DNA from: an uncultured Bacilli bacterium
Lineage (GTDB): Bacteria > Bacillota_I > Bacilli_A > RF39 > UBA660
NCBI GenBank assembly: GCA_910578855.1
Contig: CAJTRV010000004.1
Span: forward strand, 5,551 to 69,550
Direction of reading: 5' to 3'
Length of the DNA stretch: 64,000 bases
Of the stretch, positions 6,581-59,141 are shown one piece after another. The position numbers were made by a program, and so were the translations under genes. Position 1 is the first letter of the stretch, and every line of letters starts with the position of its first letter. Under the pieces are notes generated by a model. The model was not told the origin of the DNA and ran no database searches. It saw only the letters and a list, made by a program, of their open reading frames with translations.

Positions 6581-7672
6581 TTATTTTTGATAACGACTAA
6601 TATTTAAAATAATTCCAATACTAGACATCGTAATAAGCAAGCTAGAGCCTCCATAACTTAGAAATGGAAGTGTAACCCCAGTTACGGGAATTAAGCCAGT
6701 TACAACCATTAAATTTAAAATCGCTTGGAAGCCAATTTGAAAGGCAATCCCAAATGTCAAATACTTCGCAAACATATCTTGACTCTTTCTAGCAATCTTA
6801 AACGCACGCGTAAGAATAATAAGAAACAAACCAACGACAATAATGACCCCTAGAAAACCAAACTCTTCACTGATAATGGAGAATATAAAATCAGTCTGTG
6901 GTTCTGGTAGATAGAAATGCTTTTGTCGCGAATTTAAAAAGCCATAGCCAAATAATCCTCCAGGACCAATCGCATATAACGATTGAATGATCTGGAAGCC
7001 ACTACCAAGTGGATCCTTCCATGGATTTAAAAAGGATAATATCCGTTCTAACCGATAGGGAGCTACAGCAATCAAGCCAACAATCCCGGCCATTCCAAGC
7101 ATTCCCATGCGTAAGAAAAATTTGAAAGGAACACCGCCAACAAAGATAAGCCCCATAATACTCATCACGATAATCATTCCGGTTCCAAAGTCAGGTTGTA
7201 ACATAATAATTCCAAAGACAAGTAAGGTAAGGCTTAGAATCGGTAAAACCCCTTTTTTGATATCAGTCATCTGCTTTTCATTCTTAACCAGATACTTCGC
7301 TGTAAAAATGATAAGTGCCAATTTCATGAACTCACTTGGTTGAATCCCAAATGAGCCAATTCCAAACCAGCTACGACTTCCATTCCGAACCGTTCCAATC
7401 CCAGGAATTAAGACCAACACCAATAAAATAAAACAGGTAATAACCAAAGGTGTAGCCTTCTCATAATAAAGTCGATAATCAATTTTACTAATAACATACA
7501 TAAAAACTAGTCCCAAGAGAAAGAAGACACCTTGATTAATGACAAATTTAAATGGATTATGAAACTTATATTCAGCCCATACATAAGAAGCGGAATAAAT
7601 CATGATAATTCCAAAGATGGAAATCAAGATCACACTAATCAGAAGTCCATAATCAATATTCCCTTTTTTCAT
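6581..7672 (-). CDS. ftsW: SEDS-family peptidoglycan polymerase FtsW/SpoVE
   Basis: 363 aa polytopic protein with motifs LPEPQTDFIFS and GVTLPFLSYGGSS. It sits immediately downstream of mraY in the dcw cluster. Confidence 0.85.
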   Translation of the reverse strand: MKKGNIDYGLLISVILISIFGIIMIYSASYVWAEYKFHNPFKFVINQGVFFLLGLVFMYVISKIDYRLYYEKATPLVITCFILLVLVLIPGIGTVRNGSRSWFGIGSFGIQPSEFMKLALIIFTAKYLVKNEKQMTDIKKGVLPILSLTLLVFGIIMLQPDFGTGMIIVMSIMGLIFVGGVPFKFFLRMGMLGMAGIVGLIAVAPYRLERILSFLNPWKDPLGSGFQIIQSLYAIGPGGLFGYGFLNSRQKHFYLPEPQTDFIFSIISEEFGFLGVIIVVGLFLIILTRAFKIARKSQDMFAKYLTFGIAFQIGFQAILNLMVVTGLIPVTGVTLPFLSYGGSSLLITMSSIGIILNISRYQK

Positions 7673-8687: not shown

Positions 8688-10604
8688 CTACTGTTTTAAT
8701 AACAATCTTACTACGTCACCCTCGTAAATTTTCTCGCCTGCTTTAGGTGATTGATAGGCGATTGTCTCCCCAGTTCCAGAAAATTCTACCTTGAAGCTGG
8801 TAAGCTCCTTCATCGCCTCACTGGTACTCTTGCCAACAACATTTGGAACCTTGGCATATTTCTTATCCCCATAGTTATAGCGTTTCTCGCTACTTCCTTT
8901 TCGTTTGGGAATATTAAGAGCAGTAATCGAATCTTGTAAAATAGTCTTAGCAATCGGTGCCGCAACAGTTCCACCATACTGGGTAATGCCCTTGGCATTG
9001 TCAATTGCTACATAGACAACAACCTGAGGATCATCAGCTGGTAAAAAACCAATAAACGAGGTAATATAGTTTCCTACCATATAACGACCATCCTTTACCT
9101 TTTGCGCTGTCCCAGTCTTTCCACCAACCCGGTACCCATCAATAAAGGCTGGGCGTCCTGTTCCATTGGTTACAACACTTTCTAGCGTCATTCGTACTTG
9201 CTCAGATGTTTTCGAACTGATGACTTTGCGGACCACTTTCTTCTTCGTCTCTTTAATTACACCATTGGTTTCCGGTTCATTTAAACTCTTAACAATATAG
9301 GGTTGATATAAGTATCCCCCATTGATGGCTGCACTAACTGCTGTAATCTGTTGAATTGGTGTAACTGATACCCCTTGCCCAAATGACGTCGTTGCAAGTT
9401 CAACAGGCCCTACTTTATCGAGTGGAAACAAGATACCAGATCCTTCTCCATTTAAATCAATTCCGGTTTTCGTTCCAAAACCAAAATTATGAATGTACTG
9501 GAACAATTTTTCCTTACCGATTCGCTGCCCCAGTACAACGAATCCTGGGTTGCATGAATTTTCAACAACCTGTAAAAAAGTTTGTTCCCCATGACCTCCA
9601 TGCTTCCAACACTTAATCTTGGCATTCTCAACCCGAATTGATCCCCCATCGGTAAACTTATCTTTATTAAGATCAACAAGCTTCTCTTCTAAAGCCGTTG
9701 CAAGGGTAATAATTTTAAATGTCGATCCTGGCTCATAGGTCATCCAAATTGGTAAATTTCGATTGATTTCCTCGATGGTATAATCTTGATAATTACTTGG
9801 TGAAAAATTAGGACGCGAAGACATTGCTAATATCTCCCCACTCTTAGGATCCATCACAATTCCAAGAGCTTGATCAGGATTATACTTTAACATCGCATTA
9901 TCTAGTTCCCGTTCTAGTGAGGATTGAATATCATAATTAATTGTTAACGTCATATTCATTCCATCCTGTGGTTTTTCATAGACCTCATTTAATTCTAACT
10001 TGTTTCCCTTGGCATCACTAAAATATTTAATTGCTCCATATTCTCCCGTTAAATACTGATCATACATGAGTTCCAATCCTGATAATCCTTGGTTATCAAT
10101 TCCAACAAATCCAATCGTATGTGATAAATACCGATCGTTAGGATAATTGCGTTTTGACTCTTTTACGAGATAAACCCCTGGTAATTCTAAAGCAGCAATT
10201 TTATCGGCAACATCATATGACAAACGGCGTCCTTCAGGGTGAACCCGTTCAATCGACTCCTTCTTGGTAACATGCTGATAAATAGTCTGATATGAAACAC
10301 CTAAAATCGCACTGATCTCTTTGGCTGTCTTTTCCTTATCTTTAATTTGATTGGGAATAAAGACCAATGACGATGTTGTTAGATTATCAGCGAGAACAAC
10401 CCCATTACGGTCATAGATATTACCACGACTCGCCTCGATAGGAAGATTACGACTCCATAAACCAGCTGCATATTGATTAAGACGTTTATAATCGATTACT
10501 TGAATATAAAAGACTTTCCCAATGATCATCAAAAATAATAGAAGCATGATCAATAAAACAATCCGAATACGATAGTGAATATTTTTAAAGAACATGGTAA
10601 TCAC
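8688..10604 (-). CDS. spoVD: Class B penicillin-binding protein with one C-terminal PASTA domain (SpoVD-like)
   Basis: 638 aa with an N-terminal TM segment. Catalytic motifs are SxxK (GSTFK), SxN (NSCN) and KTGTA. The single PASTA-like tail and second position in the cluster match the B. subtilis pbpB-spoVD order. Confidence 0.7.
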   Translation of the reverse strand: MITMFFKNIHYRIRIVLLIMLLLFLMIIGKVFYIQVIDYKRLNQYAAGLWSRNLPIEASRGNIYDRNGVVLADNLTTSSLVFIPNQIKDKEKTAKEISAILGVSYQTIYQHVTKKESIERVHPEGRRLSYDVADKIAALELPGVYLVKESKRNYPNDRYLSHTIGFVGIDNQGLSGLELMYDQYLTGEYGAIKYFSDAKGNKLELNEVYEKPQDGMNMTLTINYDIQSSLERELDNAMLKYNPDQALGIVMDPKSGEILAMSSRPNFSPSNYQDYTIEEINRNLPIWMTYEPGSTFKIITLATALEEKLVDLNKDKFTDGGSIRVENAKIKCWKHGGHGEQTFLQVVENSCNPGFVVLGQRIGKEKLFQYIHNFGFGTKTGIDLNGEGSGILFPLDKVGPVELATTSFGQGVSVTPIQQITAVSAAINGGYLYQPYIVKSLNEPETNGVIKETKKKVVRKVISSKTSEQVRMTLESVVTNGTGRPAFIDGYRVGGKTGTAQKVKDGRYMVGNYITSFIGFLPADDPQVVVYVAIDNAKGITQYGGTVAAPIAKTILQDSITALNIPKRKGSSEKRYNYGDKKYAKVPNVVGKSTSEAMKELTSFKVEFSGTGETIAYQSPKAGEKIYEGDVVRLLLKQ

Positions 10605-10630
10605 CTCTAATAATGTATATGTACAAGCAC

Positions 10631-10660
10631 AAAAAAAAGAACAACATCACGATTGTTCTT
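10631..10660 (-). terminator. Rho-independent terminator downstream of the deacetylase gene and upstream of spoVD-like
   Basis: On minus the sequence reads aagaacaa-tcgtgatg-ttgttctt followed by tttttttt. Confidence 0.7.
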
Positions 10661-10839
10661 AGCGTTCTTTATGTGCATAAATATAAAGTGAGATAGGGTA
10701 ACCAATCTAATGATCATTGCGGTCATCAACCAGTAACAAAGTCCCTGGATGCGCAAAAAATATTTCAAATAATACTACACCAATGGGAAGATTATGCTTC
10801 CAGATTTTCCAAAAAGTTCTCCAGTAAGACAACTAAATC

Positions 10840-12042
10840 TTAATTGTTCACTCCATGATGGATGGGCTTAGTCCCAGCTGTAATCCGATCAAACTGATAG
10901 CCATTCTGTTTGCCATAGGTAATAATACGGTCTAAAGCATCCGCTGTTTGTTGGTTTGCTGCATAATCATGCATCAATACAACATATGTGGACTCATTAC
11001 CTAAACTAGACGTTACATTTTTGACAATCGCATCGCTCCCAATTCGCCCAGTATCTCCGCTATCAATATTCCAATCAAAATAATGAAATCCTCGGCGCAT
11101 TACTTCGGTTGTCAGAGTACTCATAATGCCTGGTTGAAACTTACTAACAGTATTCGAACTTCCTCCTGGAAAACGAATAATATTAGCATCTTCCCCAGTA
11201 ATCGTTTTTAAGCGAGCTCGTAATTCATAAAGATCTTTAAAATAAGTATCCACTGATTGATAAATATAACGATAATTATGCGTATTGCTATGAATTGCCA
11301 CCGTATGACCTTCATCATGTACTCGTTTCGTGATAGCATTGTAACTAGAATCTTTCCCGATCATAAAAAATGTTGCTTTGACCCCATGCTGCTTTAAAAC
11401 ATCCAATATGGCAGGTGTAACCTGCGATGGACCGTCATCAAATGTTAAATAAATAGTTTTTAAATTTGGATCTTTCTTAGGAACCACTCGAATTGTTCGG
11501 ATTTCCGTCACTTCATTCCCCGCTTGATCCTTACTATAATATTGTAATCGATATTCCCCCTGTTTCTTTGGATTGACTTGCCCCGTTACCCGAACAGATT
11601 TGGTAATATCTCCATCATTATTATCGATTGCCTGATAACCAGGCTCGGTATAGTTTGTCCCCTCTTCTACAAACATCTCTTTGGCTCCATGTAGGACAAG
11701 TCGGGGTTTATCACGGTCTATAACAATCACTGTTCGTGATTTACGAATCGTTCCATTTAGATAAGAAATACGATATTGAATTTGATACCTACCAGCTCTC
11801 TTCATATTTAAATTACTTTTAACGATAACCCGTGGTGACTTCATTCCAAGTATCACTGAAACCTTCGTTCCAGGATCAACATAGTTCTCCCCCATAGGAA
11901 TAGTCATTGTCTTTGGACCCTTCAATTGGATCCTTGGACGATATAATACCAGTCCCGTAATTAAAATAAATAAAAAACTCCAAAAAACAACGAGAAACTG
12001 CATTCTTCGCGTCCATTTTTTTATCGCTTGTTGCTTCATCAA
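10840..12042 (-). CDS. Membrane-anchored NodB-type polysaccharide deacetylase with N-terminal Ig-like repeats
   Basis: 400 aa with an N-terminal TM segment. NodB motifs are LTFDDGP, HSNTH and RFPGGS. Repeated beta-rich segments precede the catalytic domain. Confidence 0.8.
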   Translation of the reverse strand: MMKQQAIKKWTRRMQFLVVFWSFLFILITGLVLYRPRIQLKGPKTMTIPMGENYVDPGTKVSVILGMKSPRVIVKSNLNMKRAGRYQIQYRISYLNGTIRKSRTVIVIDRDKPRLVLHGAKEMFVEEGTNYTEPGYQAIDNNDGDITKSVRVTGQVNPKKQGEYRLQYYSKDQAGNEVTEIRTIRVVPKKDPNLKTIYLTFDDGPSQVTPAILDVLKQHGVKATFFMIGKDSSYNAITKRVHDEGHTVAIHSNTHNYRYIYQSVDTYFKDLYELRARLKTITGEDANIIRFPGGSSNTVSKFQPGIMSTLTTEVMRRGFHYFDWNIDSGDTGRIGSDAIVKNVTSSLGNESTYVVLMHDYAANQQTADALDRIITYGKQNGYQFDRITAGTKPIHHGVNN

Positions 12043-16124: not shown

Positions 16125-16336
16125 TTGTAAATAGGTCCTTTCGATTTTTTCATAAAAAGTGAAGCAAGAAAACAAATTAGAAATCAATTATGACAAGTAA
16201 ATTGTCAAGAAATAAGAATGGCCAACCATAAGACACAAAAAAAGACAATCAAAAATTCGATTGTCGAGACCATTATCAGAAATTGTGAATAGTATTTGAT
16301 AAATCGGTATTCCCAATTTAAAATCAATTCTATCAA

Positions 16337-16795
16337 TTACCAACGTCTTACTTTATTATTTTTTACTCTTTGAATATTTTGAATATTAAGCTGATTGTAA
16401 TTTTGTTCTGCACCACAGAGATTCAATATATCTTCATCAGAGTTTAATTCAAAGAATCTTTTTAACGACTCCTCTAAAGTGATATTTTTACCTTCCATTC
16501 GCTGCTTCATTAGCCATATTTGCATATCACCATAATTCATAATATTTTTCAGAAGCAGTAGGAATTCATCATACTCCATCTTTTCTTGTCTTTTATCTTC
16601 AATAGCTGCTTTTATTATCCAAAGTCTTTGTAACACTTCATCATCCCGAATACCGTATACTAACTTCATATCTTCTAATGTTTCATTTATAATAAGAATG
16701 TCTGTACAACAAAGTTTGCTCGGTTCCGTACCACATCCCTTTTTCTGCTTCCTCTTTAAACTTTCACTCAATTTTTTAAATATGTTTTCACCCAT
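16337..16795 (-). CDS. Hypothetical protein
   Basis: The start is moved to MGENIFKK (ATG 16795) because SD gggagga sits 7 nt upstream. No motif is recognised. Confidence 0.5.
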   Translation of the reverse strand: MGENIFKKLSESLKRKQKKGCGTEPSKLCCTDILIINETLEDMKLVYGIRDDEVLQRLWIIKAAIEDKRQEKMEYDEFLLLLKNIMNYGDMQIWLMKQRMEGKNITLEESLKRFFELNSDEDILNLCGAEQNYNQLNIQNIQRVKNNKVRRW

Positions 16796-16885
16796 ATATA
16801 CTTCCTCCCAGAAGTAGTATAACATATTTTAGATATTATTGTTATTATCTACTAATATTATTTAAAATAACTGTATAAAATTTTA

Positions 16886-16918
16886 TATAAAAAAGAAAAG
16901 AGGACTACTCTCCTCTTT
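16886..16918 (-). terminator. Rho-independent terminator after the micro-ORF pair
   Basis: On minus the sequence reads aaagagga-gagtag-tcctcttt followed by a T-rich tail. It overlaps the stop codon at 16917-16919. Confidence 0.65.
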
Positions 16919-17057
16919 AAAAGAAACAAGAACCTAAAATAATTGCTAATAAGATGTATAATACGATAATGCAAACATAATTATTTCCGGTGTTGCATCC
17001 ACATCCACATCCACAATTAGTTGGTTCTGGACGACTGCAATTGTTTCCACATGCCAT
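16917..17057 (-). CDS. 46-aa Cys-rich small hydrophobic protein, YjcZ-like (sporulation micro-protein family)
   Basis: Below the ORF-track size cutoff. My translation is MACGNNCSRPEPTNCGCGCGCNTGNNYVCIIVLYILLAIILGSCFF, with SD aggagg 6 nt upstream. A Gly/Cys head plus an IVLxILLxI tail is the YjcZ-type pattern as I remember it. Confidence 0.55.
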   Translation of the reverse strand: MACGNNCSRPEPTNCGCGCGCNTGNNYVCIIVLYILLAIILGSCFF

Positions 17058-17073
17058 ACGATTCACCTCCTGC

Positions 17074-17157
17074 CTAAATGTACGCTCCAAGTATGATTAT
17101 TAAAAGAATAAATAATACTAAAACGATAGCAGCGCCTGATACTCCTGTGTTACACAT
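17074..17157 (-). CDS. 27-aa small hydrophobic protein, YjcZ-like paralog
   Basis: My translation is MCNTGVSGAAIVLVLFILLIIILGAYI. SD aggagga lies about 9 nt upstream of ATG 17157. An alternative ATG at 17166 is too close to the SD. Confidence 0.5.
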   Translation of the reverse strand: MCNTGVSGAAIVLVLFILLIIILGAYI

Positions 17158-17192
17158 AAAAATCATTCCTCCTTTTTTTGTCTTTTCAAGAG

Positions 17193-17219
17193 TATTTTAT
17201 GGCAATCAGAGTAATTTGT
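17193..17219 (-). promoter_or_regulatory. Possible mother-cell (SigK/SigE-type) promoter for the micro-ORFs
   Basis: The minus strand reads AC-16 nt-CATAAAATA, which resembles the AC-17-CATAnnnTA consensus. It sits about 35 nt upstream of the start. This is a by-eye match only. Confidence 0.3.
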
Positions 17220-17303
17220 GATTACTTATAACCAAAATATTGTAATTTTTATATTTTTTTGATAATATAGTACATGTATAATTGAAAGGAGTTCATAAAA
17301 CAT

Positions 17304-18299
17304 ATGAATAAAAACAGAAATAAAAAACTAGGTTTGATTGCCCTTGTAGCAGTTGTACTGTTAACAGCTGGATGTGGAAAGGTATCAAAACTAAAAAATG
17401 GTGAAGAATTAGTTGCTAGTATCAATGGAAAGAAAATTACAACCGAAGATTTATACAAGGAATTAAAAAAACAGGGAGGATCTAGTGTTCTGATTAATTT
17501 AATTGACGAATATATCGCCAATAAAGAAGTAAAAACCGATGATACAACCAAAGAATATGCCAATGCACAATTAGAACAAATGAAAACACAATATACCCAA
17601 GCTGGACAAGACTTTAATGCAGCTCTTATCAATGCTGGTTATAAAAATGAAGCGGCATTTAAAGACGTATTAATTCTCGACTATAAAAAACAACAAGTAG
17701 TTAAGAAATTCTTAGAGAAAGAATTGAAAGATGAAGAAATTGACAAATACTATAAAGATGAAATCTTTGGAGCCATGACAGCTCGCCATATCTTAATTAA
17801 ACCTGATGTCAAAGATGATGCTAGTGATGAAGACAAAGAGAAAGCGGAAGAAGCAGCAAAGAAAAAAGCCGAAGAGCTCATAAAAAAATTAGAAGATAGC
17901 AAAGATGTTGAAAAAACATTCAAGGAACTAGCTGAGAAAAATTCTGACGATGAAGCTACAGCCAAAGAAGGTGGACTATTTAGTGACTTTGAAAAAAGTG
18001 AAGTCGTAACTGAATTCTGGGATGCAAGTGCCAAATTAAAAGATGGAAAATATACCAAAGAGCCAGTAAAAAGTGACTATGGATATCATATCATTTATCG
18101 TGTTAGCCAAAAAAGCAAACCAAAATTAAAAGATGTCAAAGACGAAATTAAAGAAACCCTTGTTTCTAATAAATTAACAAATGACGCTAACTTATCTAGT
18201 AAAACTTGGGATCGTATTCGTCGGGAAAAGTATAAATTAAAAATTGAAGACAGTGAACTAAATGATTCTTATAAGAGCATTGTTGATAATATTAAATAA
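17304..18299 (+). CDS. prsA: Foldase lipoprotein PrsA (parvulin-type peptidyl-prolyl isomerase)
   Basis: 331 aa with lipobox LLTAGCG. The parvulin core shows ARHILI and GYHIIY. SD aaaggag lies upstream. Confidence 0.85.
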   Translation: MNKNRNKKLGLIALVAVVLLTAGCGKVSKLKNGEELVASINGKKITTEDLYKELKKQGGSSVLINLIDEYIANKEVKTDDTTKEYANAQLEQMKTQYTQAGQDFNAALINAGYKNEAAFKDVLILDYKKQQVVKKFLEKELKDEEIDKYYKDEIFGAMTARHILIKPDVKDDASDEDKEKAEEAAKKKAEELIKKLEDSKDVEKTFKELAEKNSDDEATAKEGGLFSDFEKSEVVTEFWDASAKLKDGKYTKEPVKSDYGYHIIYRVSQKSKPKLKDVKDEIKETLVSNKLTNDANLSSKTWDRIRREKYKLKIEDSELNDSYKSIVDNIK

Positions 18300-18327: not shown

Positions 18328-19188
18328 CTAAAACATAATCCGTGGTTTAAAGTGTCCTGGTTCATATTGTTCATATATCCCAATCGGTGAGCCATCAGGA
18401 TTAATAAATAAAATCTTATCAACATCATAATAAGCTTCTATTTTATTACCATTCCGGATCCGGGTTGCATTTTCATCACCAACGACCATCTGTTTGACAT
18501 CGACTAATGCTTCGGGAATCGAAATACAACGATAATTGCCATTTTCAAGCGCGGTTAAGCGAATTGCCGATGCCAAGGTATAATTTCCCTGTCTCGTCCG
18601 TTCTAACCGCAGCATCGTTCCAATCGTTCCCAACTGAGCAGCCAAGTCCCGGATGAGACTACGAATATAAGTCCCCTTACTTACCGTTGTTCGAATCGTA
18701 AACCGAATTTTTCCATCGCTAACAGTAAGTGGGGAAATCCGTTTTAAAGAGGCAATTGTCACCTCTTTTTTTGGTAATGTTACTGCCTCATGATGACGAG
18801 CATACTCATATAATTTTTTTCCCCGAACCTTAACCGCTGAATAAATTGGTACTTCTTGCAGATACGTCCCAATCATTTGCGCTAAGGCATGATCAATCTC
18901 AGTCTCTGATTTCCTTACTGTTTCCGAAGCGAGAATCTTACCCGTAATATCTAAAGTATCAGTCAACGTTCCCAATTCTATTTCGGCAATATATTCTTTC
19001 TCCTTATTGGTAATATAATCCACTAATTTCGTTGCTTTCCCAACGGCTAAAACCAACACCCCGGTAGCCATGGGATCAAGAGTTCCCGTATGGCCGATTT
19101 TCTTCGTCTTTAGGGCCTTGCAGGCAATGTTTACAACATCACGACTTGTATACCCTGTTTCCTTATTAATCACAATAAACCCATTCAT
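18328..19188 (-). CDS. truB: tRNA pseudouridine(55) synthase
   Basis: 286 aa with the catalytic-Asp motif HTGTLDPMATGVL. Confidence 0.9.
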   Translation of the reverse strand: MNGFIVINKETGYTSRDVVNIACKALKTKKIGHTGTLDPMATGVLVLAVGKATKLVDYITNKEKEYIAEIELGTLTDTLDITGKILASETVRKSETEIDHALAQMIGTYLQEVPIYSAVKVRGKKLYEYARHHEAVTLPKKEVTIASLKRISPLTVSDGKIRFTIRTTVSKGTYIRSLIRDLAAQLGTIGTMLRLERTRQGNYTLASAIRLTALENGNYRCISIPEALVDVKQMVVGDENATRIRNGNKIEAYYDVDKILFINPDGSPIGIYEQYEPGHFKPRIMF

Positions 19189-29586: not shown

Positions 29587-30810
29587 TTATTCATTAAAAA
29601 TTCCTTTTAACATATTGGATACCGCAACAAAAATAGCTGATATTCGATACCAAGTAGCAAAGTTAACAATTCCTGTAACTGGTAGATTAAAAACACGTTG
29701 AAATACCTTTACGGCCTCGATCGTATCTGGGCCATATATTCCATTGGCCTTTTGAATGGAAGGAATAGCAGGATAACTCCCTCTAATTTTATTCAATGCA
29801 TTTTGTAATAGTTGAACTTCTTCACCACATGCCCCTTCTGTCAAATTATAACCTGGAAACGAAGTTGGCAACCCTGGGACAATTTCAGCTGTAACAAGCT
29901 CGATGGTATTTCCATAATAATAACGAACAATTTGTAGAGAATTATAACCTTGGTCCCCTAGTGACTTAGACCCCCACTGACTAAGCCAACCTTCTCGCAC
30001 TACATTAATTCCATCACTATATTGGGCAAAAAAAGGATAAGAACGTCCAGGAAATTTTAAATATTCCATAAATACTTCATCGACTACATTAGATATGGTA
30101 TCAAAAATTGTTCGATTATGAGAATATTTTTGATCATATGCAGTCGAAGAGGTAATCGTAAAATTATACCCTTTAGAGTAATACCATTCCGTATAGACCC
30201 GATTTAAAGTAAATGATACAATCGCATGGACATTGGCCTTTAGTGTTTCTCTAGGCCAACTAGGATAAATTTCTGACGATGTGACATTCTTGATATAATC
30301 TGAAAATGATACATAATAATTTGGAGCATAAGTATCCGTAGGAATTCCATCATGAACAATAATATATTCGGGAATGACAACCCGGGGTAATACCTTAGAT
30401 TCCAATGATCCTATCTCTGGATGTTCAACAATTTTGGGAACTTCATTGTCCCATATCGTTGGTGGTGGGACAATTGTTGTTATCTTTCCTGATCCCCCTG
30501 TTGTTGTACTGAGATATACATCCTGAATCGATGTAATACCAGCATAAACTTGAACCCCGAGAACGGTTCCGGTTCCAAGGCCATCTTTGGTTACGGTAAC
30601 ATTATACGTCTCCCAAGGTTGAACTATCGTCTGTGGTTCTAAAGAGTATTCGATATTAGGTGCTTCAAGAGCAATCGCCTCCGTCCTTCCAGATTCATCA
30701 GTAACAACATTAATATTGGTATTATTTCCACTAATATTCACTCTGGCCCCCATTAATGGTTGCGCAACATTATCTACAAACACATTCACAACCAAATGTC
30801 CAATTGCCAT
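29587..30810 (-). CDS. Peptidoglycan-binding protein (N-terminal CarboxypepD_reg-like domain, C-terminal PG_binding_1), possibly SleC-like cortex hydrolase
   Basis: The C-terminal motif is GEEVQLLQNALN...GIYGPDTIEAVKVFQRVFNLPVTGIV. The start is moved to ATG 30810 because the TTG at 30819 abuts the SD. The hydrolase role is a guess. Confidence 0.5.
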   Translation of the reverse strand: MAIGHLVVNVFVDNVAQPLMGARVNISGNNTNINVVTDESGRTEAIALEAPNIEYSLEPQTIVQPWETYNVTVTKDGLGTGTVLGVQVYAGITSIQDVYLSTTTGGSGKITTIVPPPTIWDNEVPKIVEHPEIGSLESKVLPRVVIPEYIIVHDGIPTDTYAPNYYVSFSDYIKNVTSSEIYPSWPRETLKANVHAIVSFTLNRVYTEWYYSKGYNFTITSSTAYDQKYSHNRTIFDTISNVVDEVFMEYLKFPGRSYPFFAQYSDGINVVREGWLSQWGSKSLGDQGYNSLQIVRYYYGNTIELVTAEIVPGLPTSFPGYNLTEGACGEEVQLLQNALNKIRGSYPAIPSIQKANGIYGPDTIEAVKVFQRVFNLPVTGIVNFATWYRISAIFVAVSNMLKGIFNE

Positions 30811-30928
30811 AACACTCAAATCCTTTCTTTCTATAATTCAATATATGTTTTTTAACAACTAATATCATTAAAAGACAACATTTTTCATCTTTCTAATATA
30901 ATACAAGTAATAGAGATGGGGTTATAAA

Positions 30929-31942
30929 ATGAATGATAACAAAAAATACTTTGTTCACCAAGAAACGGTTTCATCACTAGAAAATATGTATTTTAATGAT
31001 GTAATTACGATGATTCAACATCAACTTAAAACATTAGGTTATTATGATGTCAGCATTACCGGTAGCTACGACCACAATACCAAAACAGCAATCAAAAATT
31101 TTCAGACAGATCACCATTTAAAAAACGATGGTACGCTCAATGATCAAACCTGGGATACACTTTACTCTAACAGAAATAATTTAGAGCGCCAAGTAGCGGA
31201 ACGCCAAACAAGACCGGTTCTTAGACTCGGTAGTACTGGCCCATATGTAACGGAGTTACAAACAATTTTAAAAAATCTTCTTTACTATACTGGTACCATT
31301 GATGGTAATTTCGGAAATACTACTGCTCTCGCAGTCAAAACATTTCAGACGAATAATCACTTAACACCAGATGGTGTTGTCGGTCGAGATACTTGGAGTG
31401 CCCTTTCGACGCTATATTCACCACTGGCTATCTGTGATGACAACGAAAATGGAAATGGGAATAATCCAATTTCTTATACAGTGGTGGCCGGGGACTCCTT
31501 ATGGAGTATTGCCAAACGATTTAATACTACCGTTGAGGCAATTAAACAATTAAATCAATTAACGAGTGATGTTATTTATGTTGGTCAGCAACTTCTCATC
31601 CCGAGCGGCAATGATAATGGAACACCGCCAACTTATACCCTATATACGGTGGTAGCTGGTGATTCTCTATGGAATATTGCCAAACGATTTAATACCACCG
31701 TTGAAGAGATTAAAAGCCTCAATAATCTGACAAGTAACCTATTAACTATCGGTCAACAATTAAAGATCCCATCAGATACTTCAAATGTCATCACCTATAC
31801 AGTAATTGCTGGGGATACATTATGGAAAATAGCTCAAAAATTTAATACTACTGTAAATACATTAAAAAGCTTTAACAATCTTACCAATGACACTTTAAAT
31901 ATTGGTCAGCAATTAAGAATCCCAATCAATCGTAACGAATAA
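30929..31942 (+). CDS. Cell-wall-binding protein with 2 PG_binding_1 and 3 LysM domains
   Basis: The pattern TAIKNFQ...L..DG occurs twice. The pattern Y(T)V(V/I)AGD(S/T)LW.IA.(R/K)FNTTV...L...N.LT...(L/I).(I/V)GQQL.IP occurs three times. Confidence 0.8.
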   Translation: MNDNKKYFVHQETVSSLENMYFNDVITMIQHQLKTLGYYDVSITGSYDHNTKTAIKNFQTDHHLKNDGTLNDQTWDTLYSNRNNLERQVAERQTRPVLRLGSTGPYVTELQTILKNLLYYTGTIDGNFGNTTALAVKTFQTNNHLTPDGVVGRDTWSALSTLYSPLAICDDNENGNGNNPISYTVVAGDSLWSIAKRFNTTVEAIKQLNQLTSDVIYVGQQLLIPSGNDNGTPPTYTLYTVVAGDSLWNIAKRFNTTVEEIKSLNNLTSNLLTIGQQLKIPSDTSNVITYTVIAGDTLWKIAQKFNTTVNTLKSFNNLTNDTLNIGQQLRIPINRNE

Positions 31943-31968
31943 AAAATACCATCGAAATGGTATTTTTT
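31943..31968. terminator. Bidirectional rho-independent terminator
   Basis: The sequence is aaaataccat-cgaa-atggtatttt followed by tt. Confidence 0.75.
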
Positions 31969-31973
31969 GTTTC

Positions 31974-32942
31974 TTATATAATTAATCGTTGGCCTGGATA
32001 AATTCTATTGGGATTATCTCCAATCGTTGCTTTATTCTTATTATAAATAGTCTGCCATGTCGTCCCAAATTGTTTGGCAATTTTAGATAAATTATCGCCT
32101 TTTTTTACAATATAAACAGTTGGTTCAACTGCAGTAGATGGCAAGATTAGTACTTGACCTGGATAGATTAGATTGGGATTTTTAATATGATTCAATGCTA
32201 CTAATGTCGCAACAGTTGTTTGGTACCTACTTGCAATCGTCGATAAGTTATCACCAGCTTTTACGACATATGTTTTCTGATTAGTTGGTGGTTCATCTGG
32301 ATCAGTTGGTTCTGTTGATTCATCTAGGTGGTTTAATCCTCGTTCTTTTATGATCATAGGATAATCTAGATAAGCAATATCACGATCGACTCGACCATTA
32401 ATTCCGGAAATACTTCCATCACTCGTATACTGCCACATACCAAATGGTTTATCATAAGTAGGAAGATTACTCCATTGTGCCAACCACTTATCATAGCGAT
32501 CTAATTTAGGTGAATTTAATTTTGATTGAAAAAAGGCTTTGCTCGAATATATTCCTACATAGTATCCAGCCTGCTCTATTTTATCACAAAATGTTTGACA
32601 CATTTTTACCAGCATTTCATTACTATTTTGGTCGGTATAAGAGTTAGCCTCAATATCATAATAAATCGGATATTCTAGTCGGTAATTCTTAGCCAATCGT
32701 AAAGCATGATCTGCTTCACTACTCGCTTCAGCTGTTCCCCTGGCGTAACTAAATAAATAGATTCCAAAGGGAATCCCTAACCGAGTACATTCTGAAGCAT
32801 TACGGTGGAACTTTGTATCATCTTGACTAGTACGATCAACACCATAACCACATCTTAAAATAGCAAAATCAACTTGATCTTTAACTTTTTCCCAATCGAT
32901 ATCACCTTGGTAATAAGAAACATCAATTCCTTGCTTTTCCAT
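31974..32942 (-). CDS. GH25 muramidase (lysozyme) with two C-terminal LysM domains
   Basis: [16 protein letters not shown] and [10 protein letters not shown] are GH25 signatures. Two LysM repeats are present ([13 protein letters not shown] and [13 protein letters not shown]). The start is at MEKQGID. Confidence 0.85.
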
Positions 32943-33025
32943 ATACAACTCCTTTCGTTATTATAGTATACGAATGAAATAATATAAGAGTAAGGAAGTC
33001 AAACTAAAAAAGAAGGAATAACCTT

Positions 33026-33565: not shown

Positions 33566-35239
33566 CTATCGTGACATTCCACCAGTAGATGCTTCTACTT
33601 GAACAGGAGTGCCATCAGATAAATACCAGTTACCATCAGCACCCATAATCAAGTCACTATAATAAACTTCCTCAGTCGTCGTTGTAGTAGTTGCACTATT
33701 ACTATTTTCATTTGGTTGCGACTGTCCACCATTATTTGGAAGCACATTACCACTATCGAAACCTGGATAATAGTTGTCTTGTGTATCTTGATTATTATCT
33801 ATAACATTATCGTCCTCAGGTGGCGTTATGTTATTTTTAACAGAATTATATCCTAACATATAATTAGAATCACTTGATTGTGGTGGCAACCCTGCAAGTG
33901 CATCATTTGCCCCACGTTGAACTAATTGTTCAACTGTTTCTTTATTTGACTGTTGATTGTTTTCATCATGAAAACCGGTATCCACTTCTTGACCTTTATG
34001 TTCATTATAATCAGCTACACCTGCATTAATCGTCGTTTTTCCAGTCTTTGGATCAGTTCGCAAATTTTTATAATCCTCCGCTGTCATCTGACTACCTTTT
34101 TGTTTTTTCATTGCTTCTGTATATTCATGTGAATCACTTGCTTGCGAAGCAATTTCACTAGCATTTTTCTTATTTTCAACTTTTACTTTACTAATTTCAA
34201 TCGCGATTTCTTTTAAAGATTTACCACCATCAGACTTTGATTCATCAGTTGCTTTTTCAATTTCAATCATCTCAGTAATATTTTCTAATATTGATGTGAA
34301 AGCACTGGAATAACTAGAATGATTTTCTTCAATAAAATCCGTATTTTCTGTTCTTTCAGCACATGCTTTATCGAGATGATCAATGAAAGTATTTCGAACA
34401 GTTTGATTAATATCCTTATAGCTATGAAAATACTGAGCGTAACTTGTTGCAACGAACATAGCCATTTCACTATAACCAGCTGATCCATTTTGAATTTTAT
34501 CTAAGGTCTTTACCAATTCATCACGATTTTCATTACTTCGTTCTGTATTCAATTTTTGATACAATGCTTGTAACTCATTTAACATCTTCGCATCATATTT
34601 TTTCGGAAATATACTAGACCAATCCACTTTGAATTGATTAGTCATCAACCCAGTATTCAATGATTGTCTATATTCCTCAAGGTATTTCAACGCATCCGCT
34701 CTATTAGATACAAACTCAGAAATATTTAATGATTTAATTCTAGCATCAGTTTTTGCTTCAAAACCAGCTAATATTGAATAAAATGCTAACTTATCATTAG
34801 AAAACCGTCCCTCTTCTAACAATCCATTTTCACCTAATAACTTCTTAATACTAATTCCTTGATCAATTAGCGTTTGGTCTGCTAAAGCATTACGGCTCCA
34901 ATAATCCTCATCAAACAAAACAATATTATTTTTATCTGAACCTGGTTCTTTATCTTTACTATCATTTCCACAACCAGTCAAGGAAACCGCAATTGCTCCA
35001 ATTAGTCCCACTGGAACTAGTATTTTTACAAGTACTCCATACTTTTCTTTAATTTTACTGACAATATTTTCCCGAACACCCTGTTGCTTTTTATAGTCCT
35101 TCACAATTTTATTAATTTTAGTTAATGCTCCATTCGAAAAATCATTTAGTTCAAGTTTCGAAAAGGCTTCCAACACATTTTCCCCGCGATCGAGTGTTCG
35201 TTGTAAAGCTGCAATTATGGACATTTCATATGCATTCAT
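33566..35239 (-). CDS. Hypothetical single-pass envelope protein with Q/N/D/T-rich C-terminal tail
   Basis: 557 aa. An ~80-aa cytoplasmic head is followed by the TM segment ILVPVGLIGAIAVSLTGCG, then a large external region and a low-complexity tail ending NSATTTTTEEVYYSDL. Confidence 0.5.
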   Translation of the reverse strand: MNAYEMSIIAALQRTLDRGENVLEAFSKLELNDFSNGALTKINKIVKDYKKQQGVRENIVSKIKEKYGVLVKILVPVGLIGAIAVSLTGCGNDSKDKEPGSDKNNIVLFDEDYWSRNALADQTLIDQGISIKKLLGENGLLEEGRFSNDKLAFYSILAGFEAKTDARIKSLNISEFVSNRADALKYLEEYRQSLNTGLMTNQFKVDWSSIFPKKYDAKMLNELQALYQKLNTERSNENRDELVKTLDKIQNGSAGYSEMAMFVATSYAQYFHSYKDINQTVRNTFIDHLDKACAERTENTDFIEENHSSYSSAFTSILENITEMIEIEKATDESKSDGGKSLKEIAIEISKVKVENKKNASEIASQASDSHEYTEAMKKQKGSQMTAEDYKNLRTDPKTGKTTINAGVADYNEHKGQEVDTGFHDENNQQSNKETVEQLVQRGANDALAGLPPQSSDSNYMLGYNSVKNNITPPEDDNVIDNNQDTQDNYYPGFDSGNVLPNNGGQSQPNENSNSATTTTTTEEVYYSDLIMGADGNWYLSDGTPVQVEASTGGMSR

Positions 35240-35253
35240 CTAAACCCCTCCTT

Positions 35254-36606
35254 CTATTTTTCTTTCTTCTCGCCGGTCCATTCATAACCGTCGTTGATTA
35301 AATTTTTATCGTCACACTTGCTCCATTTTTCATCACGCCATCCGCTCTTAATAGATCGTGTTCGGTAACGATAATACTTTGTATTAACAGGAACTTTGAC
35401 CGTTCCATAAATTGGTTCGGTTGTTTTTTCGACCCGTTGTGATGTACCATAATCTACAATCACCTTAATGGTTGTATAAACAGGTGTTGACTTCGTCTCC
35501 CATTTTGTACATACCGTTTGCGTTTTAGTAACTTCGTACTTTTGACATGTTTTTTGAGCCCATATCTGATATTCTCCAAAAGAACAATTACCACAATGCT
35601 CTGGGACATCTGAAATCCAATACCAATACTCAGTATCACTAAAAGTTAACTCGTCTCTACTTCCAACCTTTTTTCTAACCCCTGTATCAGTAAATTTTGT
35701 ATATTTATACTCACCAGTTCCCACTTCCTGAGTTTTCGTTGCTGTACATACTTTTTTCTGTTCAGTACCAATTTGAATTTGTTTATCACCATAAATTGGC
35801 TTATTTTTATCTTTATATGTAATGGTCTTGGTGATAATTCGTTCTCCAATTTTAACCGTCTCATTTTTATAAGTAACTTCGTTTTTCGTTTCAACATCAG
35901 TTAAATCATCTTCATACTTTGGTGATGTTGACCAGCTTGACCAGTTACCCCAATCAGTATAGGAAGCCTTTACCGTCTTAACATACTTACAAATAAATTC
36001 TTTTTGACCTGGTGTTGGCGTTGGTTTTGGTTTATTTGTCGGAGTTGGTGTCGGTTTTGGTTTACTAGTTGGCGTTGGTGTTTTACTAGGCTTACTGGTT
36101 GGTGCTGGAGTTGCCTTTGATGGTAAGATCGCTGGTGTTTTCACATCCTTTTCATCTTTTTCACAGATGGTCGTCTTACAATAATCATAACATCCCATGT
36201 AAACTAATAAATAATTTTCTTGTTCAGTACATTTCAAGTTGACCTTCATGATATACTCTTCATCCATCTTCGTAATTTCTACATAAGAAGCCGTATTATC
36301 ACATGATCTTCCTTTACTATCGGTAAATGGTAACACAATTTTCTTGTCTAACATTTCACCTAATGTCATCGACACTTTATCCCCAACTTTTTGTGGCAAT
36401 CGCGGCGTCGTATAATAACTCTTTGCTGAATCTTTCATCATTAAAATGTTTTCATTAAAGATTCGATCATATAAAGGTGTTAACGCATCCTTTACAAATT
36501 GTTTTGATGGAAATAAATAAATTAAAATAAATACAAACAGTACTACAAATAAAATCTGTAATACAATATCCTTAATTGAAAAACTATCTTTACGTTCTTG
36601 ATACAT
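35254..36606 (-). CDS. Hypothetical single-pass envelope protein with Pro/Thr/Lys linker
   Basis: The start is moved to MYQERKD (ATG 36606, SD gaggggga). A TM segment is followed by a globular part, the linker PAPTSKPSKTPTPTSKPKPTPTPTNKPKPTPTPG and a Cys/Trp/Tyr-rich beta-type C-terminal domain. Confidence 0.5.
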   Translation of the reverse strand: MYQERKDSFSIKDIVLQILFVVLFVFILIYLFPSKQFVKDALTPLYDRIFNENILMMKDSAKSYYTTPRLPQKVGDKVSMTLGEMLDKKIVLPFTDSKGRSCDNTASYVEITKMDEEYIMKVNLKCTEQENYLLVYMGCYDYCKTTICEKDEKDVKTPAILPSKATPAPTSKPSKTPTPTSKPKPTPTPTNKPKPTPTPGQKEFICKYVKTVKASYTDWGNWSSWSTSPKYEDDLTDVETKNEVTYKNETVKIGERIITKTITYKDKNKPIYGDKQIQIGTEQKKVCTATKTQEVGTGEYKYTKFTDTGVRKKVGSRDELTFSDTEYWYWISDVPEHCGNCSFGEYQIWAQKTCQKYEVTKTQTVCTKWETKSTPVYTTIKVIVDYGTSQRVEKTTEPIYGTVKVPVNTKYYRYRTRSIKSGWRDEKWSKCDDKNLINDGYEWTGEKKEK

Positions 36607-36742
36607 AAAAACTCCCCCTCTTCTCAAATTATGTTCGCTATGATAACACAACCGTCTATTCTTGTCAAGTGCCACACAATTCCAATTTTTTCTTATTTTT
36701 CAAACCATCACTTGTTAATAAATTATACCATATTTTAGGCTG

Positions 36743-53853: not shown

Positions 53854-54230
53854 AATTTTTCTCCTAACATTATTTCCATAATTTCTTGAATTCGATTAAA
53901 GTGACCATTTAGATAATGATACCCAATTAATGCTTCTAAACCAGTTGATTCTTTATAAGTTACAATGTCAGTATGCTTAGGATGACGAGATCCTTTATGA
54001 TTCCTGGCACGTTTCACAATCTGAATCTCTTCGGTTGTTAATGATTCCTGATCTAGTAACATTTTTAAATAACGACTTTGGGCTTTGGCACTAACATATT
54101 GAACAGCTTCTTTCTGAAGATCATTCACTTTACAAAGACCTTTTTTTAATAACAGAGTCCGAATAACAACTTCATAAATACTATCACCAACATAAGCCAA
54201 CGCCAAAACATTTAGGCAATCTGTTTTCAT
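53823..54230 (-). CDS. mrnC: Mini-ribonuclease 3
   Basis: 135 aa with motif LALAYVGDSIYE, which resembles the RNase III signature. It lies upstream of rlmB. Confidence 0.8.
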   Translation of the reverse strand: MKTDCLNVLALAYVGDSIYEVVIRTLLLKKGLCKVNDLQKEAVQYVSAKAQSRYLKMLLDQESLTTEEIQIVKRARNHKGSRHPKHTDIVTYKESTGLEALIGYHYLNGHFNRIQEIMEIMLGEKLCISMEKMSH

Positions 54231-55108
54231 ACAAGTTCCTCAATTCGATCAAAGGTAATTCCTTTTATTAGACCACTTTTCATATCGTTTAAAATGAGAT
54301 TCATCACGCGGTCATAATCAATTTCCCCACCCTGAATCATACATCCTCGACGTTTACCAATGATATCCAACGTGTTAACCATATCTTCTTCATCAATAGT
54401 CGTAATTCCATAACGTGATTCTAACTCCTGAGGATAATAAGTATATAGCATGTTCAAAATGTAACAGACCACATCATAAATAGGCAATACTTCCTCTTTA
54501 ATTGCCGTTAAACTTGCGAGATTAAGGGCAATAGTTTGATCATCAAACTTCGGCCATAGTACCCCTGGTGAGTCTAACAATTCAAGACGCTGATTGATGC
54601 GAATCCAATCCAATGACTTCGTCACTCCAGGACGGTTTCCAACATTGGCAACCTTTTTTCCAACTAAGCGATTGATCAATGTGCTCTTTCCAACATTGGG
54701 AATCCCGACAACAAGGACCCGAATACGTCTTGATTTCATTCCTCTAGCAATCATATCATCCATCTTATCTTGCATCATCGCTTCAGTCTTTTTCACTATT
54801 CCGGTTGTACTTTGTTGATGCTCTAAATCAACCCCCATTACTTGATAACCTAGTTGTTCATAATACCGAATCCAGCGCTCTGTTTCTTTTTTATCACATA
54901 GATCCATCTTGGTCATAATTAACAACTTCGGCTTATTTCCAATAATCGATTCAATATCTTGAATCTTTGATGAGTATGGCATCCGAGCATCGATTACTTC
55001 ATAAACAACATCAATAACACTCATTTTTTCCTTCATAATTCGCTTGGCTTTCGCCATGTGACCGGGATACCAGTTGATTGTCGTATTTTGTCCTTTATTG
55101 TCGTTCAT
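54227..55108 (-). CDS. rbgA: Ribosome biogenesis GTPase A (YlqF/RbgA), circularly permuted GTPase
   Basis: The start is at MNDNKGQNTTINWYPGHMAKAKR (ATG 55108, SD aaggaag). The G4-like MTKMDL precedes the G1 motif GIPNVGKSTLIN. The longer track ORF to 55156 lacks an SD. Confidence 0.88.
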   Translation of the reverse strand: MNDNKGQNTTINWYPGHMAKAKRIMKEKMSVIDVVYEVIDARMPYSSKIQDIESIIGNKPKLLIMTKMDLCDKKETERWIRYYEQLGYQVMGVDLEHQQSTTGIVKKTEAMMQDKMDDMIARGMKSRRIRVLVVGIPNVGKSTLINRLVGKKVANVGNRPGVTKSLDWIRINQRLELLDSPGVLWPKFDDQTIALNLASLTAIKEEVLPIYDVVCYILNMLYTYYPQELESRYGITTIDEEDMVNTLDIIGKRRGCMIQGGEIDYDRVMNLILNDMKSGLIKGITFDRIEELV

Positions 55109-55123
55109 TTGTTTCACTTCCTT
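55070..55123 (-). repeat. Junction A: native rbgA SD plus first 13 codons, the chromosomal member of the repeat family that bounds the cassettes
   Basis: The minus strand reads aaggaagtgaaacaaATGAACGACAATAAAGGACAAAATACGACAATCAACTGG and then continues into rbgA (TATCCCGGTCAC). It aligns with copies B and C up to AACTGG (plus ccagtt at 55070-55075). Confidence 0.7.
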
Positions 55124-55559
55124 TAGATTTATTTTTATATTTAACATATTCTTCAATTTTTTTATTATAGTTCTTTAAATCTTCTACAAATTGAGGCTTA
55201 AATTGATTTAAATAATCAATGATTAAATCAGCATATTCATCAATATTTTCATCATCAACTATATCTATGAGATATTTATTGATTCCTTTTTTAGTATTTA
55301 TTCTTTCTACATAAAAGGCTAACAAATTAGTTGGACCTATTTTTTCTTTTGCTGATAAAACAATAGAAATCAAATTTTCTCTTGATGCATAATATCTCGG
55401 TTTAAATCCATTTGACCTAGAAAATAATATCAAAGTACAACCAATAAATAATTTATCTGAACCATTTTTAGGAAATGTTTTGTTTGCAAATTCAATTAAA
55501 CTTTCTGTATTACCCTGTTCGTAATCATCATATAGTTCCATTAAAATTCTATTTATCAT
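55095..55559 (-). CDS. Hypothetical protein (cassette 1 cargo)
   Basis: 154 aa with SD gaggag upstream of ATG 55559. The last 13 codons read through the rbgA SD and start codon. No motif is recognised. Confidence 0.5.
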   Translation of the reverse strand: MINRILMELYDDYEQGNTESLIEFANKTFPKNGSDKLFIGCTLILFSRSNGFKPRYYASRENLISIVLSAKEKIGPTNLLAFYVERINTKKGINKYLIDIVDDENIDEYADLIIDYLNQFKPQFVEDLKNYNKKIEEYVKYKNKSKGSETNERQ

Positions 55560-55569
55560 TTTATCTCCT

Positions 55570-55845
55570 CTATTTATATAGACTTTTTATAACTCTATTA
55601 ATGCAATCTTTGGCACTTCTGTTATTATTTGAAAAACTAATTTTTACTAATGTCCCATTTACTTTAAAAGCATATGGATTCTTTGTGGAAGCAATAAAAT
55701 CCAATATTCTTTCATTACTAGGTTTTCTTCTATCTATTTTTATATTTGTTATTTCATCCACATCTTCTAATTTTACATCATCAAGATTTACATTTCTACA
55801 TCTTTCTAATTTTTCTGCTAATTCTTTAATATTATATTTATTCAT
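55570..55845 (-). CDS. Small DUF6870-like protein (cassette 1)
   Basis: The start is at MNKYNIKELAEK (ATG 55845, SD ggagtg). The pattern ...DVDEITNIKIDRRKPSNERILDFIASTKNPYAFKVNGTLVKISFS resembles small proteins I recall from Firmicute mobile elements. That assignment is from memory. Confidence 0.5.
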   Translation of the reverse strand: MNKYNIKELAEKLERCRNVNLDDVKLEDVDEITNIKIDRRKPSNERILDFIASTKNPYAFKVNGTLVKISFSNNNRSAKDCINRVIKSLYK

Positions 55846-55927
55846 AAAATCACACTCCATATTAATTATAAAATCAAATACAATTAATGTTAAATGTGCA
55901 ATTTTTTATTATAAATGATAATCTTTA

Positions 55928-56953: not shown

Positions 56954-57209
56954 TTATTTTCACCGCTTTCTTATGTTCTTAAATGTCGTAATCACCTATC
57001 TAATTTCTATTATAAATAGCGCAAAAATTACTATATTTTTATGAATTTTTATTGTTTTTTATCATTTTTTAATGAAAACATGCAAGATATAAATTGGATA
57101 GTTTCCTTTATTTATAAGGGTTTAAGGGTGTTCTTAATTAAATCGTAATCAACCAGTTTATGTTTGCCTGATTTTGTCGATTTTCATTATTCATTTATTT
57201 CACTTCCTT
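56954..57209 (-). repeat. Cassette-boundary repeat B, containing a decoy rbgA 5' end
   Basis: Positions 57107-57209 match 59039-59141 at 99 of 103 nt; the rest is roughly 80% identical by eye. It contains SD, ATG (57194) and MNNENRQNQANINWLITI* (57138-57194), the core ccagtt at 57153-57158, and two cgtaatc motifs at 56987 and 57144. Confidence 0.8.
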
Positions 57210-57993: not shown

Positions 57994-58056
57994 ATTATAC
58001 CTTCTTTCTATAATAATTTTATTATTTAGAAAGAAATAACACAAATGTGCAAAATA

Positions 58057-58899: not shown

Positions 58900-59141
58900 A
58901 TATTCGCCTCTTTTCCATGTCCTTAAAATTCGTAATCACCTATCTAATTCTTATAATAAATAATACCAAAATTATTAGTTTTTATATTTTTAATTATTTT
59001 TTAATGAAAATATGCAAGATCTAATCTAGATAATTTTCTTTATTTATAAGGGTTTAATGGTATTCTTAATTAAATCGTAATCAGCCAGTTTATGTTTGCC
59101 TGATTTTGTCGATTTTCATTATTCATTTGTTTCACTTCCTT
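58900..59141 (-). repeat. Cassette-boundary repeat C, containing a decoy rbgA 5' end
   Basis: It is homologous to repeat B throughout. It contains SD, ATG (59126) and MNNENRQNQANINWLITI* (59070-59126), the core ccagtt at 59085-59090, and cgtaatc motifs at 58931 and 59076. Confidence 0.8.

Follow-up and report, generated by a model that had tools for sequence, protein, structure and literature searches.

SpoVM (26 amino acids, aa) and CmpA (37 aa) of Bacillus subtilis are mother-cell micro-proteins found at the interface between the forespore membrane and the coat. The YjcZ family (TIGR01732 "tiny_TM_bacill" and PF09680 YjcZ_2), whose prototype is B. subtilis YjcZ, is a further group of small sporulation membrane proteins. 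B. subtilis yjcZ belongs to the sigma-K regulon on gene-specific evidence (Eichenberger et al. 2004, PMC517825), Bacillus cereus AH187 lists at least six YjcZ paralogues (PMC8313275), and few bacterial proteins of up to 50 residues are annotated as often as those of the YjcZ type (sORFdb preprint). In the present work we analyzed two tandem micro-genes of this kind from an uncultured Bacilli bacterium, lying in a stretch of 64,000 nucleotides (nt) of contig CAJTRV010000004.1 (assembly GCA_910578855.1), hereafter called the window. We consider it probable that they represent a compact two-gene sporulation operon coding for two paralogous YjcZ micro-proteins, each made of a short polar head and a C-terminal membrane helix. 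The elements of the unit, including its two open reading frames (ORFs), are the following:

17217..17221, minus strand: -35 element tCACA of a sigma-K-type promoter (consensus AC at 17219-17218), from motif match and alignment of 65 upstream regions
17193..17201, minus strand: -10 element CATAAAATA, of sigma-K/sigma-E type (CATAnnnTA), from motif match and the same alignment
17168..17172, minus strand: Shine-Dalgarno sequence of the short ORF, GGAGG, 10 nt 5' of the ATG
17074..17157, minus strand: gene for the short YjcZ-type micro-protein, 27 aa, MCNTGVSGAAIVLVLFILLIIILGAYI, from strand reading and ORF listing
17066..17071, minus strand: Shine-Dalgarno sequence of the long ORF, AGGAGG, 8 nt 5' of the ATG
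16917..17057, minus strand: gene for the long YjcZ-type paralogue, 46 aa, MACGNNCSRPEPTNCGCGCGCNTGNNYVCIIVLYILLAIILGSCFF, from strand reading and ORF listing
16996..17015, minus strand: perfect 6-bp tandem repeat, TGTGGA on the coding strand, 3.3 copies, encoding CGCGCGC, from a repeat search
16886..16918, minus strand: intrinsic-terminator-like hairpin (16918-16892) and T-run closing the two-gene unit, from a consensus scan

Coding evidence and family of the two peptides

Both ORFs were confirmed by reading the minus strand of 16700-17500 and listing all ORFs of at least 20 aa. On this strand the order is promoter, ribosome-binding site (RBS), 27-aa ORF, RBS, 46-aa ORF, and hairpin with T-run; scanning all the ORFs of the window for the tail motif of the two peptides did not retrieve any other copy. 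An identical 46-aa protein is predicted in a metagenome-assembled genome (MAG) named "Bacilli bacterium" (GCA_022792275.1), on a contig of 3.2 kb.

The comparative analysis was based on 34 homologues of the long peptide, obtained from a word-indexed search, and on a scan of one genome per species, which gave 227 loci, 80 of which were kept as the related set. The search pattern for the loci was the IVLYILLAI core of the long ORF, and the short ORF played no part in the selection. All 80 loci come from MAGs of uncultured gut "Bacilli", "Tenericutes" or "Bacillota", including Clostridium sp. CAG:451, CAG:710, Candidatus Onthousia, and Candidatus Pelethosoma; for the last two, the NCBI taxonomy gives an incertae sedis position within Bacilli and Mycoplasmatota.

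A short YjcZ-like ORF of 25-28 aa lies directly 5' of the long ORF in 79 of these 80 loci, the sole locus without a detected one (L044) having been overlooked by the regular expression used. Ten tail residues of the short ORF are invariant over 59 distinct nucleotide versions; its variation at codon positions 1, 2, and 3 is 0.125, 0.033, and 0.331, respectively, and its pairwise codon differences are synonymous in 13428 cases vs. 4054 non-synonymous ones, as expected of a coding sequence. The corresponding values of variation in the long ORF are 0.132, 0.017, and 0.405. Since the short ORF was not used in selecting the loci, its conservation constitutes independent evidence. These data point to strong purifying selection on both reading frames.

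Moreover, the translation signals are conserved. The Shine-Dalgarno sequence of the short ORF is kept in all 64 unique loci, with a spacing of 8-11 nt, and that of the long ORF in 63 out of 64. An alternative in-frame ATG at 17166, which would give a peptide of 30 aa, sits only 1 nt past the first GGAGG, and an extra upstream in-frame ATG of the short ORF is found in only 13 of 82 loci; for these reasons, the 27-aa start was taken as the real one. The synonymous substitution pattern, together with the conserved RBSs, rules out a non-coding transcript, an outcome that had been considered in an earlier note on this DNA, made from its letters alone.

As for the end of the unit, the consensus scan found two terminator-like sites in the region vs. 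0.3 expected, and 73 of the 76 unique related loci have a hairpin with a T-run 3' of the long ORF, with stem sequences that differ from one another. The gap between the short and the long ORF in the relatives is only 10-36 nt, which argues for one shared transcript; an Rfam scan of 16200-17400 did not match any family. The earlier note had located both ORFs, a strong Shine-Dalgarno sequence in front of each, and a clean terminator after the pair, and all of these are borne out by the present data. It had also described the ORFs as unannotated, which is true for the ORF track used there, whereas both sequences, letter for letter, are found in NCBI nr under the name "sporulation protein YjcZ" (MBD9085395.1 for the short one and MCI8445679.1 for the long one).

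The YjcZ models were the only specific family matches for both peptides, with scores slightly under the curated cut-offs (see below). All 33 short orthologue variants matched PF09680 (best E-value 7.8e-6), and 29 of the 34 long homologues matched TIGR01732 (best E-value 4.2e-5). Furthermore, the peptides show the YjcZ layout, that is, a length below about 50 aa and a brief polar head followed by a hydrophobic C-terminal helix with VL(F/Y)ILLxI..G. From these matches, we assign the pair to the known YjcZ family of small sporulation membrane proteins. The alignment of the short and long family profiles with hhalign gave a probability of 96.4% over the tail, on the basis of which the two peptides are regarded as paralogues.

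The long peptide consists of a Cys/Asn/Gly-rich head followed by the tail IIVLYILLAIILGSCFF. In its 34 homologues the tail IVLYILLAII..S is invariant and the head is variable, usually opening with M-A/S-C-x-N-x-C. An exhaustive profile search with the long peptides retrieved 294 representative clusters at E <= 0.001, and nearly all the top 150 of them are of the VLYILLAIILGS type; they constitute a distinct long-head subfamily, characterized by the VLYILLAIILGS tail and mostly unnamed in databases. For 10 more distant members of this subfamily, no name was found in any source consulted. A tblastn search of the 27-aa peptide against plasmids, aimed at named Bacillus YjcZ proteins, gave no match, for which the low-complexity filter was probably responsible.

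A natural 70-aa fusion of a short and a long peptide, MCNTGISGAAIVLVLFILLIIILGAYI-SGGVK-MACQNT..., was also found (P0083) and is predicted to be a two-helix protein; its cluster has three members (with P0182 and P0183), all from ENA metagenome assemblies. Such a fusion would be in keeping with the two peptides being functionally linked.

The head of the long peptide had been considered not typical of the family in the earlier note, on account of its Cys-dense CGCGCGC stretch. In the relatives, the stretch at this position is shorter, either CGC or CC. Among the 64 distinct long peptides of the loci, the head mostly contains three to four Cys residues (range 1-7), the seven of the window peptide being the maximum, and some distant long homologues have none or one (e.g., P0132 and P0153). 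The head is 14-35 residues long and composed mainly of N, C, S, G, and T. AlphaFold2, run on the alignment of the long peptide, gave a confident helix at residues 25-45 and a pLDDT below 50 for the head. Encoded by a perfect tandem repeat, the CGCGCGC motif is a lineage-specific product of slippage, and the head as a whole is a variable, low-complexity, Cys-prone segment. Thus, what is atypical is the exact CGCGCGC motif; richness in Cys and Asn is usual for the heads of the long subfamily. A fixed metal site at CGCGCGC was considered and set aside, the motif being a repeat expansion and the positions of the Cys residues varying.

The promoter of the pair

In B. subtilis, the sigma-K promoter pattern is AC-N16/17-CATAnnnTA, and the sigma-E -10 element, CATACAnT, is near the sigma-K one. 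In the window, AC-N16-CATAAAATA is found at 17219-17193, and the same site can be read equally as CACA-N15-CATAAAATA at 17220-17193. The alignment of 65 unique upstream regions, anchored on the -10 element, gave the consensus tCACA-N16-C-A-T-A-[A/C/G]-A-A-T-A. In all 65 loci the -10 positions C, T, A, A, T, and A are invariant, the variants being CATAAAATA (44 loci), CATACAATA (9), CATAGAATA (8), CGTACAATA (3), and CATATGATA (1). The AC lies exactly 16 nt 5' of the -10 element in 48 of the 65 loci and at 15, 17, or 18 nt in the others, bar one, and the distance from the end of the -10 element to the ATG is 27-35 nt. Being kept across 65 distinct upstream sequences, the promoter is not a chance match.

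The conserved promoter positions (the first two letters of CATA, the last A, and a C in place of the G of TTGACA) are not those of sigma-A, so that recognition by this factor is unlikely. In the same intergenic regions, the divergent prsA-like gene (see below) has a promoter of the TTGnnn-17-TGnTATGAT type, with the TG present in 32 of 49 unique loci; since these promoters show a TTG and an extended -10 element, the sigma-A promoters of this clade look different from that of the pair. Altogether, at the sequence level the promoter is one of sigma-K type. The -10 element being close to the CATACAnT of sigma-E, the pair might also be transcribed by sigma-E. The match to a mother-cell promoter, which the earlier note had made by eye, is strengthened by about 80 related loci and is consistent with the presence of yjcZ in the sigma-K regulon (PMC517825).

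All the loci were also scanned for other ORFs preceded by the same promoter motif (AC-N16/17-CATAnnnTA) and an RBS, and only three further candidates were found: one in L019 (minus strand, motif at 4870 on the reversed strand), one in L056 (5231-5743, minus strand), and one in L065 (4697, plus strand). That of L056 codes for an Asn/Tyr-rich protein of 164/170 aa with no NCBIfam match. The three might be further late mother-cell genes; with just three extra candidates carrying the motif, no regulon can be defined.

Genomic neighborhood and sporulation genes of the hosts

The genes flanking the pair in the window are:

17304..18299, plus strand: PrsA-like parvulin peptidyl-prolyl isomerase lipoprotein (Pfam Rotamase), a divergent neighbor outside the operon
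18328-19188: TruB (family scan)
16337-16825, minus strand: 162-aa ORF, MLYYFWEEVYMGENIF...KKGCGTEPSKLCC..., with no Pfam or NCBIfam match

The pair is divergent from an adjoining prsA-like gene in 79 of the 80 loci, with PrsA identities of 33-69%, and the single locus outside this synteny is truncated. In the window, the prsA-like gene has its own sigma-A promoter with an extended -10 element (TTGTAA-17-TGaTAATAT) in the intergenic region 17222-17303. The gene is the one constant neighbor of the pair. On the other side, mraZ and the dcw cluster are located 3' of the pair in only about 30 loci; the other downstream neighbors vary, comprising spoIIGA, HIT-like genes, ABC ATPases, transposase-like genes, and others. 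In the window, the 162-aa ORF separates the pair from mraZ; the identical contig L001 has it too, whereas the closest relatives, L002 and L003, lack it and have mraZ directly next to the pair.

The dcw cluster of the window includes MraZ, RsmH, a penicillin-binding protein (PBP), a polysaccharide deacetylase, a SpoVD equivalog, MraY, and a SpoVE/FtsW protein; the deacetylase (400 aa) is located between two PBP genes (8688-12042, minus strand). Two of these products concern sporulation, namely the SpoVD equivalog in the same 8688-12042 segment (TIGR02214, 743 bits vs. a cut-off of 688) and the SpoVE/FtsW protein at 6581-7672, which is borderline (TIGR02615, 440.8 vs. 448.8). Pfam scans of 20 further proteins of the window revealed no other sporulation-specific gene. 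A spoIIIA operon, guessed from ORF sizes at 52-59 kb, was rejected, the genes there being a SigH-like sigma factor, RlmB, YlqF, and ORFs without a family match.

In one relative (L017, 3528-4983), a SpoIIGA-like gene lies directly 3' of the pair (sole match TIGR02854, 96 bits, below the cut-off), and the next gene codes for a sigma factor of the SigE/SigK group (311.8 bits vs. a SigE cut-off of 339). L018 and L020 have ORFs of matching size at the corresponding position, and all three loci contain one of sigma-factor size. As to the taxonomic position of the named relatives, we take Ca. Onthousia and CAG-451 to belong to RF39. RF39, ML615J-28, and the RFN20 families CAG-631 and CAG-449 have been predicted to be sporulators with reduced gene sets (PMC10868615).

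The window has a low guanine plus cytosine (GC) content, of about 25-40%, which is very low (0.25-0.30) at 54000-62000, where the ORFs 55095-55559, 55928-56953, 57195-57704, and 58057-58899 have no NCBIfam match at E <= 1e-8; this segment may represent a horizontally acquired or fast-evolving block. Three clustered cell-wall-binding proteins are encoded at 29587-32948, with PG_binding_1, three LysM, and GH25 muramidase plus LysM domains, and the two large ORFs beside them (33566-36675) have no Pfam match.

Interpretation and comparison with known systems

We consider the following scenario the most likely one for the two-gene unit. Late in sporulation, a sigma-K-type mother-cell RNA polymerase would start at tCACA-N16-CATAAAATA, as suggested by the conservation of this site and by B. 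subtilis yjcZ; as far as the sequence tells, a single short mRNA would result, ending at the hairpin 16918-16892. Both ORFs, whose codon pattern reveals selection at the protein level, would be translated via their strong, conserved RBSs. Each peptide would be inserted into a membrane by its tail of about 20 residues (VLVLFILLIIILG and IVLYILLAIILGS), in agreement with the single confident helix of the AlphaFold2 model. More speculatively, the short and the long peptide would probably act jointly, associating into a hetero-oligomer within either the mother-cell membrane or the outer membrane of the forespore, and the exposed Cys/Asn/Ser/Gly-rich head of the latter could cross-link, or bind metal, at the membrane-coat interface.

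Several points weigh against this scenario. The short peptide of the window reaches 19.6 bits with PF09680 YjcZ_2 (cut-off 21) and 16.3 with TIGR01732 (cut-off 21.35), and the sole match of the long peptide, again with TIGR01732, scores 17.5 bits vs. 21.35; thus, in the hidden Markov model (HMM) search against the YjcZ families, these models are the only specific matches, but both peptides fall slightly below the curated cut-offs. The invariance of the IVLYILLAI core of the long ORF is partly ascertained, because the same core served as the search pattern for the loci. Taken in a single genome, the promoter match is not significant, a related pattern being expected 0.7 times per 64-kb window; a sigma-70 scan marks ATCACA-17-TAAAAT at the same site, with 9 of 12 matches, and a weak use of the promoter by sigma-A may occur. 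The head Cys residues are not strictly conserved, and some homologues have none, which weakens a model with a fixed metal site. The hosts are uncultured, and we know of no observation of sporulation in them. To our knowledge, no biochemical function is known for YjcZ proteins in any organism, and for this reason membrane insertion and joint action are steps that we infer.

The conserved synteny raises the possibility that the two peptides are small membrane proteins unrelated to sporulation, partnering the PrsA-like foldase (e.g., in membrane or secretion homeostasis) under the control of sigma-A or another sigma factor, so that "sporulation" would be just an inherited family name. The prsA-like gene does remain the divergent neighbor even where PrsA identity drops to 33% and the downstream genes vary; the sigma-70 match at the promoter and the fact that no YjcZ protein has a demonstrated function go in the same direction. 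What makes this possibility unlikely is the promoter itself, in which conservation covers the first two letters of CATA, the last A, and the -35 CACA but neither the G of TTGACA nor the TG of an extended -10 element, whereas the prsA promoters of the same loci do carry TTG and TGnTATGAT. Furthermore, B. subtilis yjcZ is sigma-K dependent (PMC517825), and spoIIGA- and sigE-like genes are found directly 3' of the pair in some relatives.

A late mother-cell promoter would also suit membrane-permeabilizing peptides, similar to type I toxins or holins, that aid lysis of the mother cell and release of the spore, and the tiny size of the two peptides, their strong hydrophobicity, their near lack of charge, and the single helix of the AlphaFold2 model agree with such a role. 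Nevertheless, we judge it very improbable: the RBSs are both strong and conserved, which is atypical of type I toxins; neither peptide has at its C-terminus the charges that characterize toxins such as Fst, TxpA, or those of Hok type; and the many YjcZ paralogues of Bacillus genomes have no reported toxicity (PMC8313275). An antitoxin RNA or partner is not evident either, from the Rfam scan and a general promoter scan that found plus-strand promoter-like matches at chance level (11 vs. 8.4 expected), no search aimed at antisense transcripts having been made. The Cys-rich head and the very small size of the ORFs might finally suggest the precursors of a Cys-containing modified peptide (a ribosomally synthesized and post-translationally modified peptide, RiPP, or a bacteriocin) or chance ORFs in a non-coding transcript. 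This explanation is hardly tenable, given that no conserved gene for a modification enzyme, a protease, or an exporter adjoins the pair in the related loci, that conservation resides in the hydrophobic tail rather than in a leader/core arrangement, that the Rfam scan had no match, and that the non-coding version is excluded by the synonymous pattern and the conserved RBSs. No rival fits the promoter conservation, the RBSs, and the neighborhood as well as a sigma-K-type bicistronic operon, which is the best-supported reading.

Starting from the sigma-K-type bicistronic operon, one may go further and propose that the short and the long peptide form an obligate two-subunit membrane module, the former being a bare anchor and the latter bringing a cross-linkable Cys/Asn-rich head. 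In gut Bacilli whose genomes are reduced and most of whose classical coat and morphogenetic proteins are gone, this module would be retained as the bare minimum joining the outer forespore membrane to the spore coat, and it might rely on the neighboring PrsA-like foldase. The strict short-then-long order, the 70-aa fusion, and the synteny with prsA would all fit such a module without demonstrating it, and we regard the proposal as unlikely.

Overall, the interpretation given in the earlier note is supported, including the YjcZ-like assignment, for which the YjcZ models are the only specific matches and which agrees with the NCBI names of both peptides; it needs correcting as regards public annotation, the repeat expansion in the head, and the sub-threshold HMM scores. 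The locus leaves the current understanding unchanged, in that the annotation is confirmed and the family refined. It adds some comparative facts, namely the fixed short-plus-long pair, the distinct VLYILLAIILGS long-head subfamily lying under curated thresholds, and the clean conservation of a sigma-K-type promoter in a lineage of uncultured bacteria that are only predicted to sporulate. The promoter motif could thus mark a working late mother-cell program in these genomes.

Among the known systems, type I toxins (Fst/Ldr, TxpA, BsrG, and Hok) resemble the two peptides in size and in the presence of a single hydrophobic helix. Unlike them, the pair has no charged C-terminal tail and consists of two tandem coding genes with strong, open RBSs and a sporulation-type promoter; moreover, no antisense RNA partner was seen by the Rfam scan and the general promoter scan, in the absence of a dedicated search. 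SpoVM and CmpA, like the pair as proposed here, are micro-proteins made in the mother cell that act where the forespore membrane meets the coat, but they have no sequence similarity to it; in particular, SpoVM has an amphipathic surface helix and is under sigma-E control, whereas the tail of the peptides described here is fully hydrophobic and predicted to span the membrane.

The YjcZ family differs from the pair in some respects: both window peptides score slightly under the curated cut-offs, the long paralogue combines the VLYILLAIILGS tail with a head of the M-[AS]-C-x-N-x-C type, 14-35 residues in length, the short and long genes have a fixed bicistronic arrangement beside prsA, and the pair occurs in uncultured, genome-reduced Bacilli of the gut rather than in members of the genus Bacillus. 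The likeness concerns the length below 50 aa, the polar head, the C-terminal VL(F/Y)ILLxIxxG helix, and the occurrence of several paralogues per genome, together with the sigma-K-type promoter found here, which has its counterpart in the sigma-K regulation of B. subtilis yjcZ (PMC517825).

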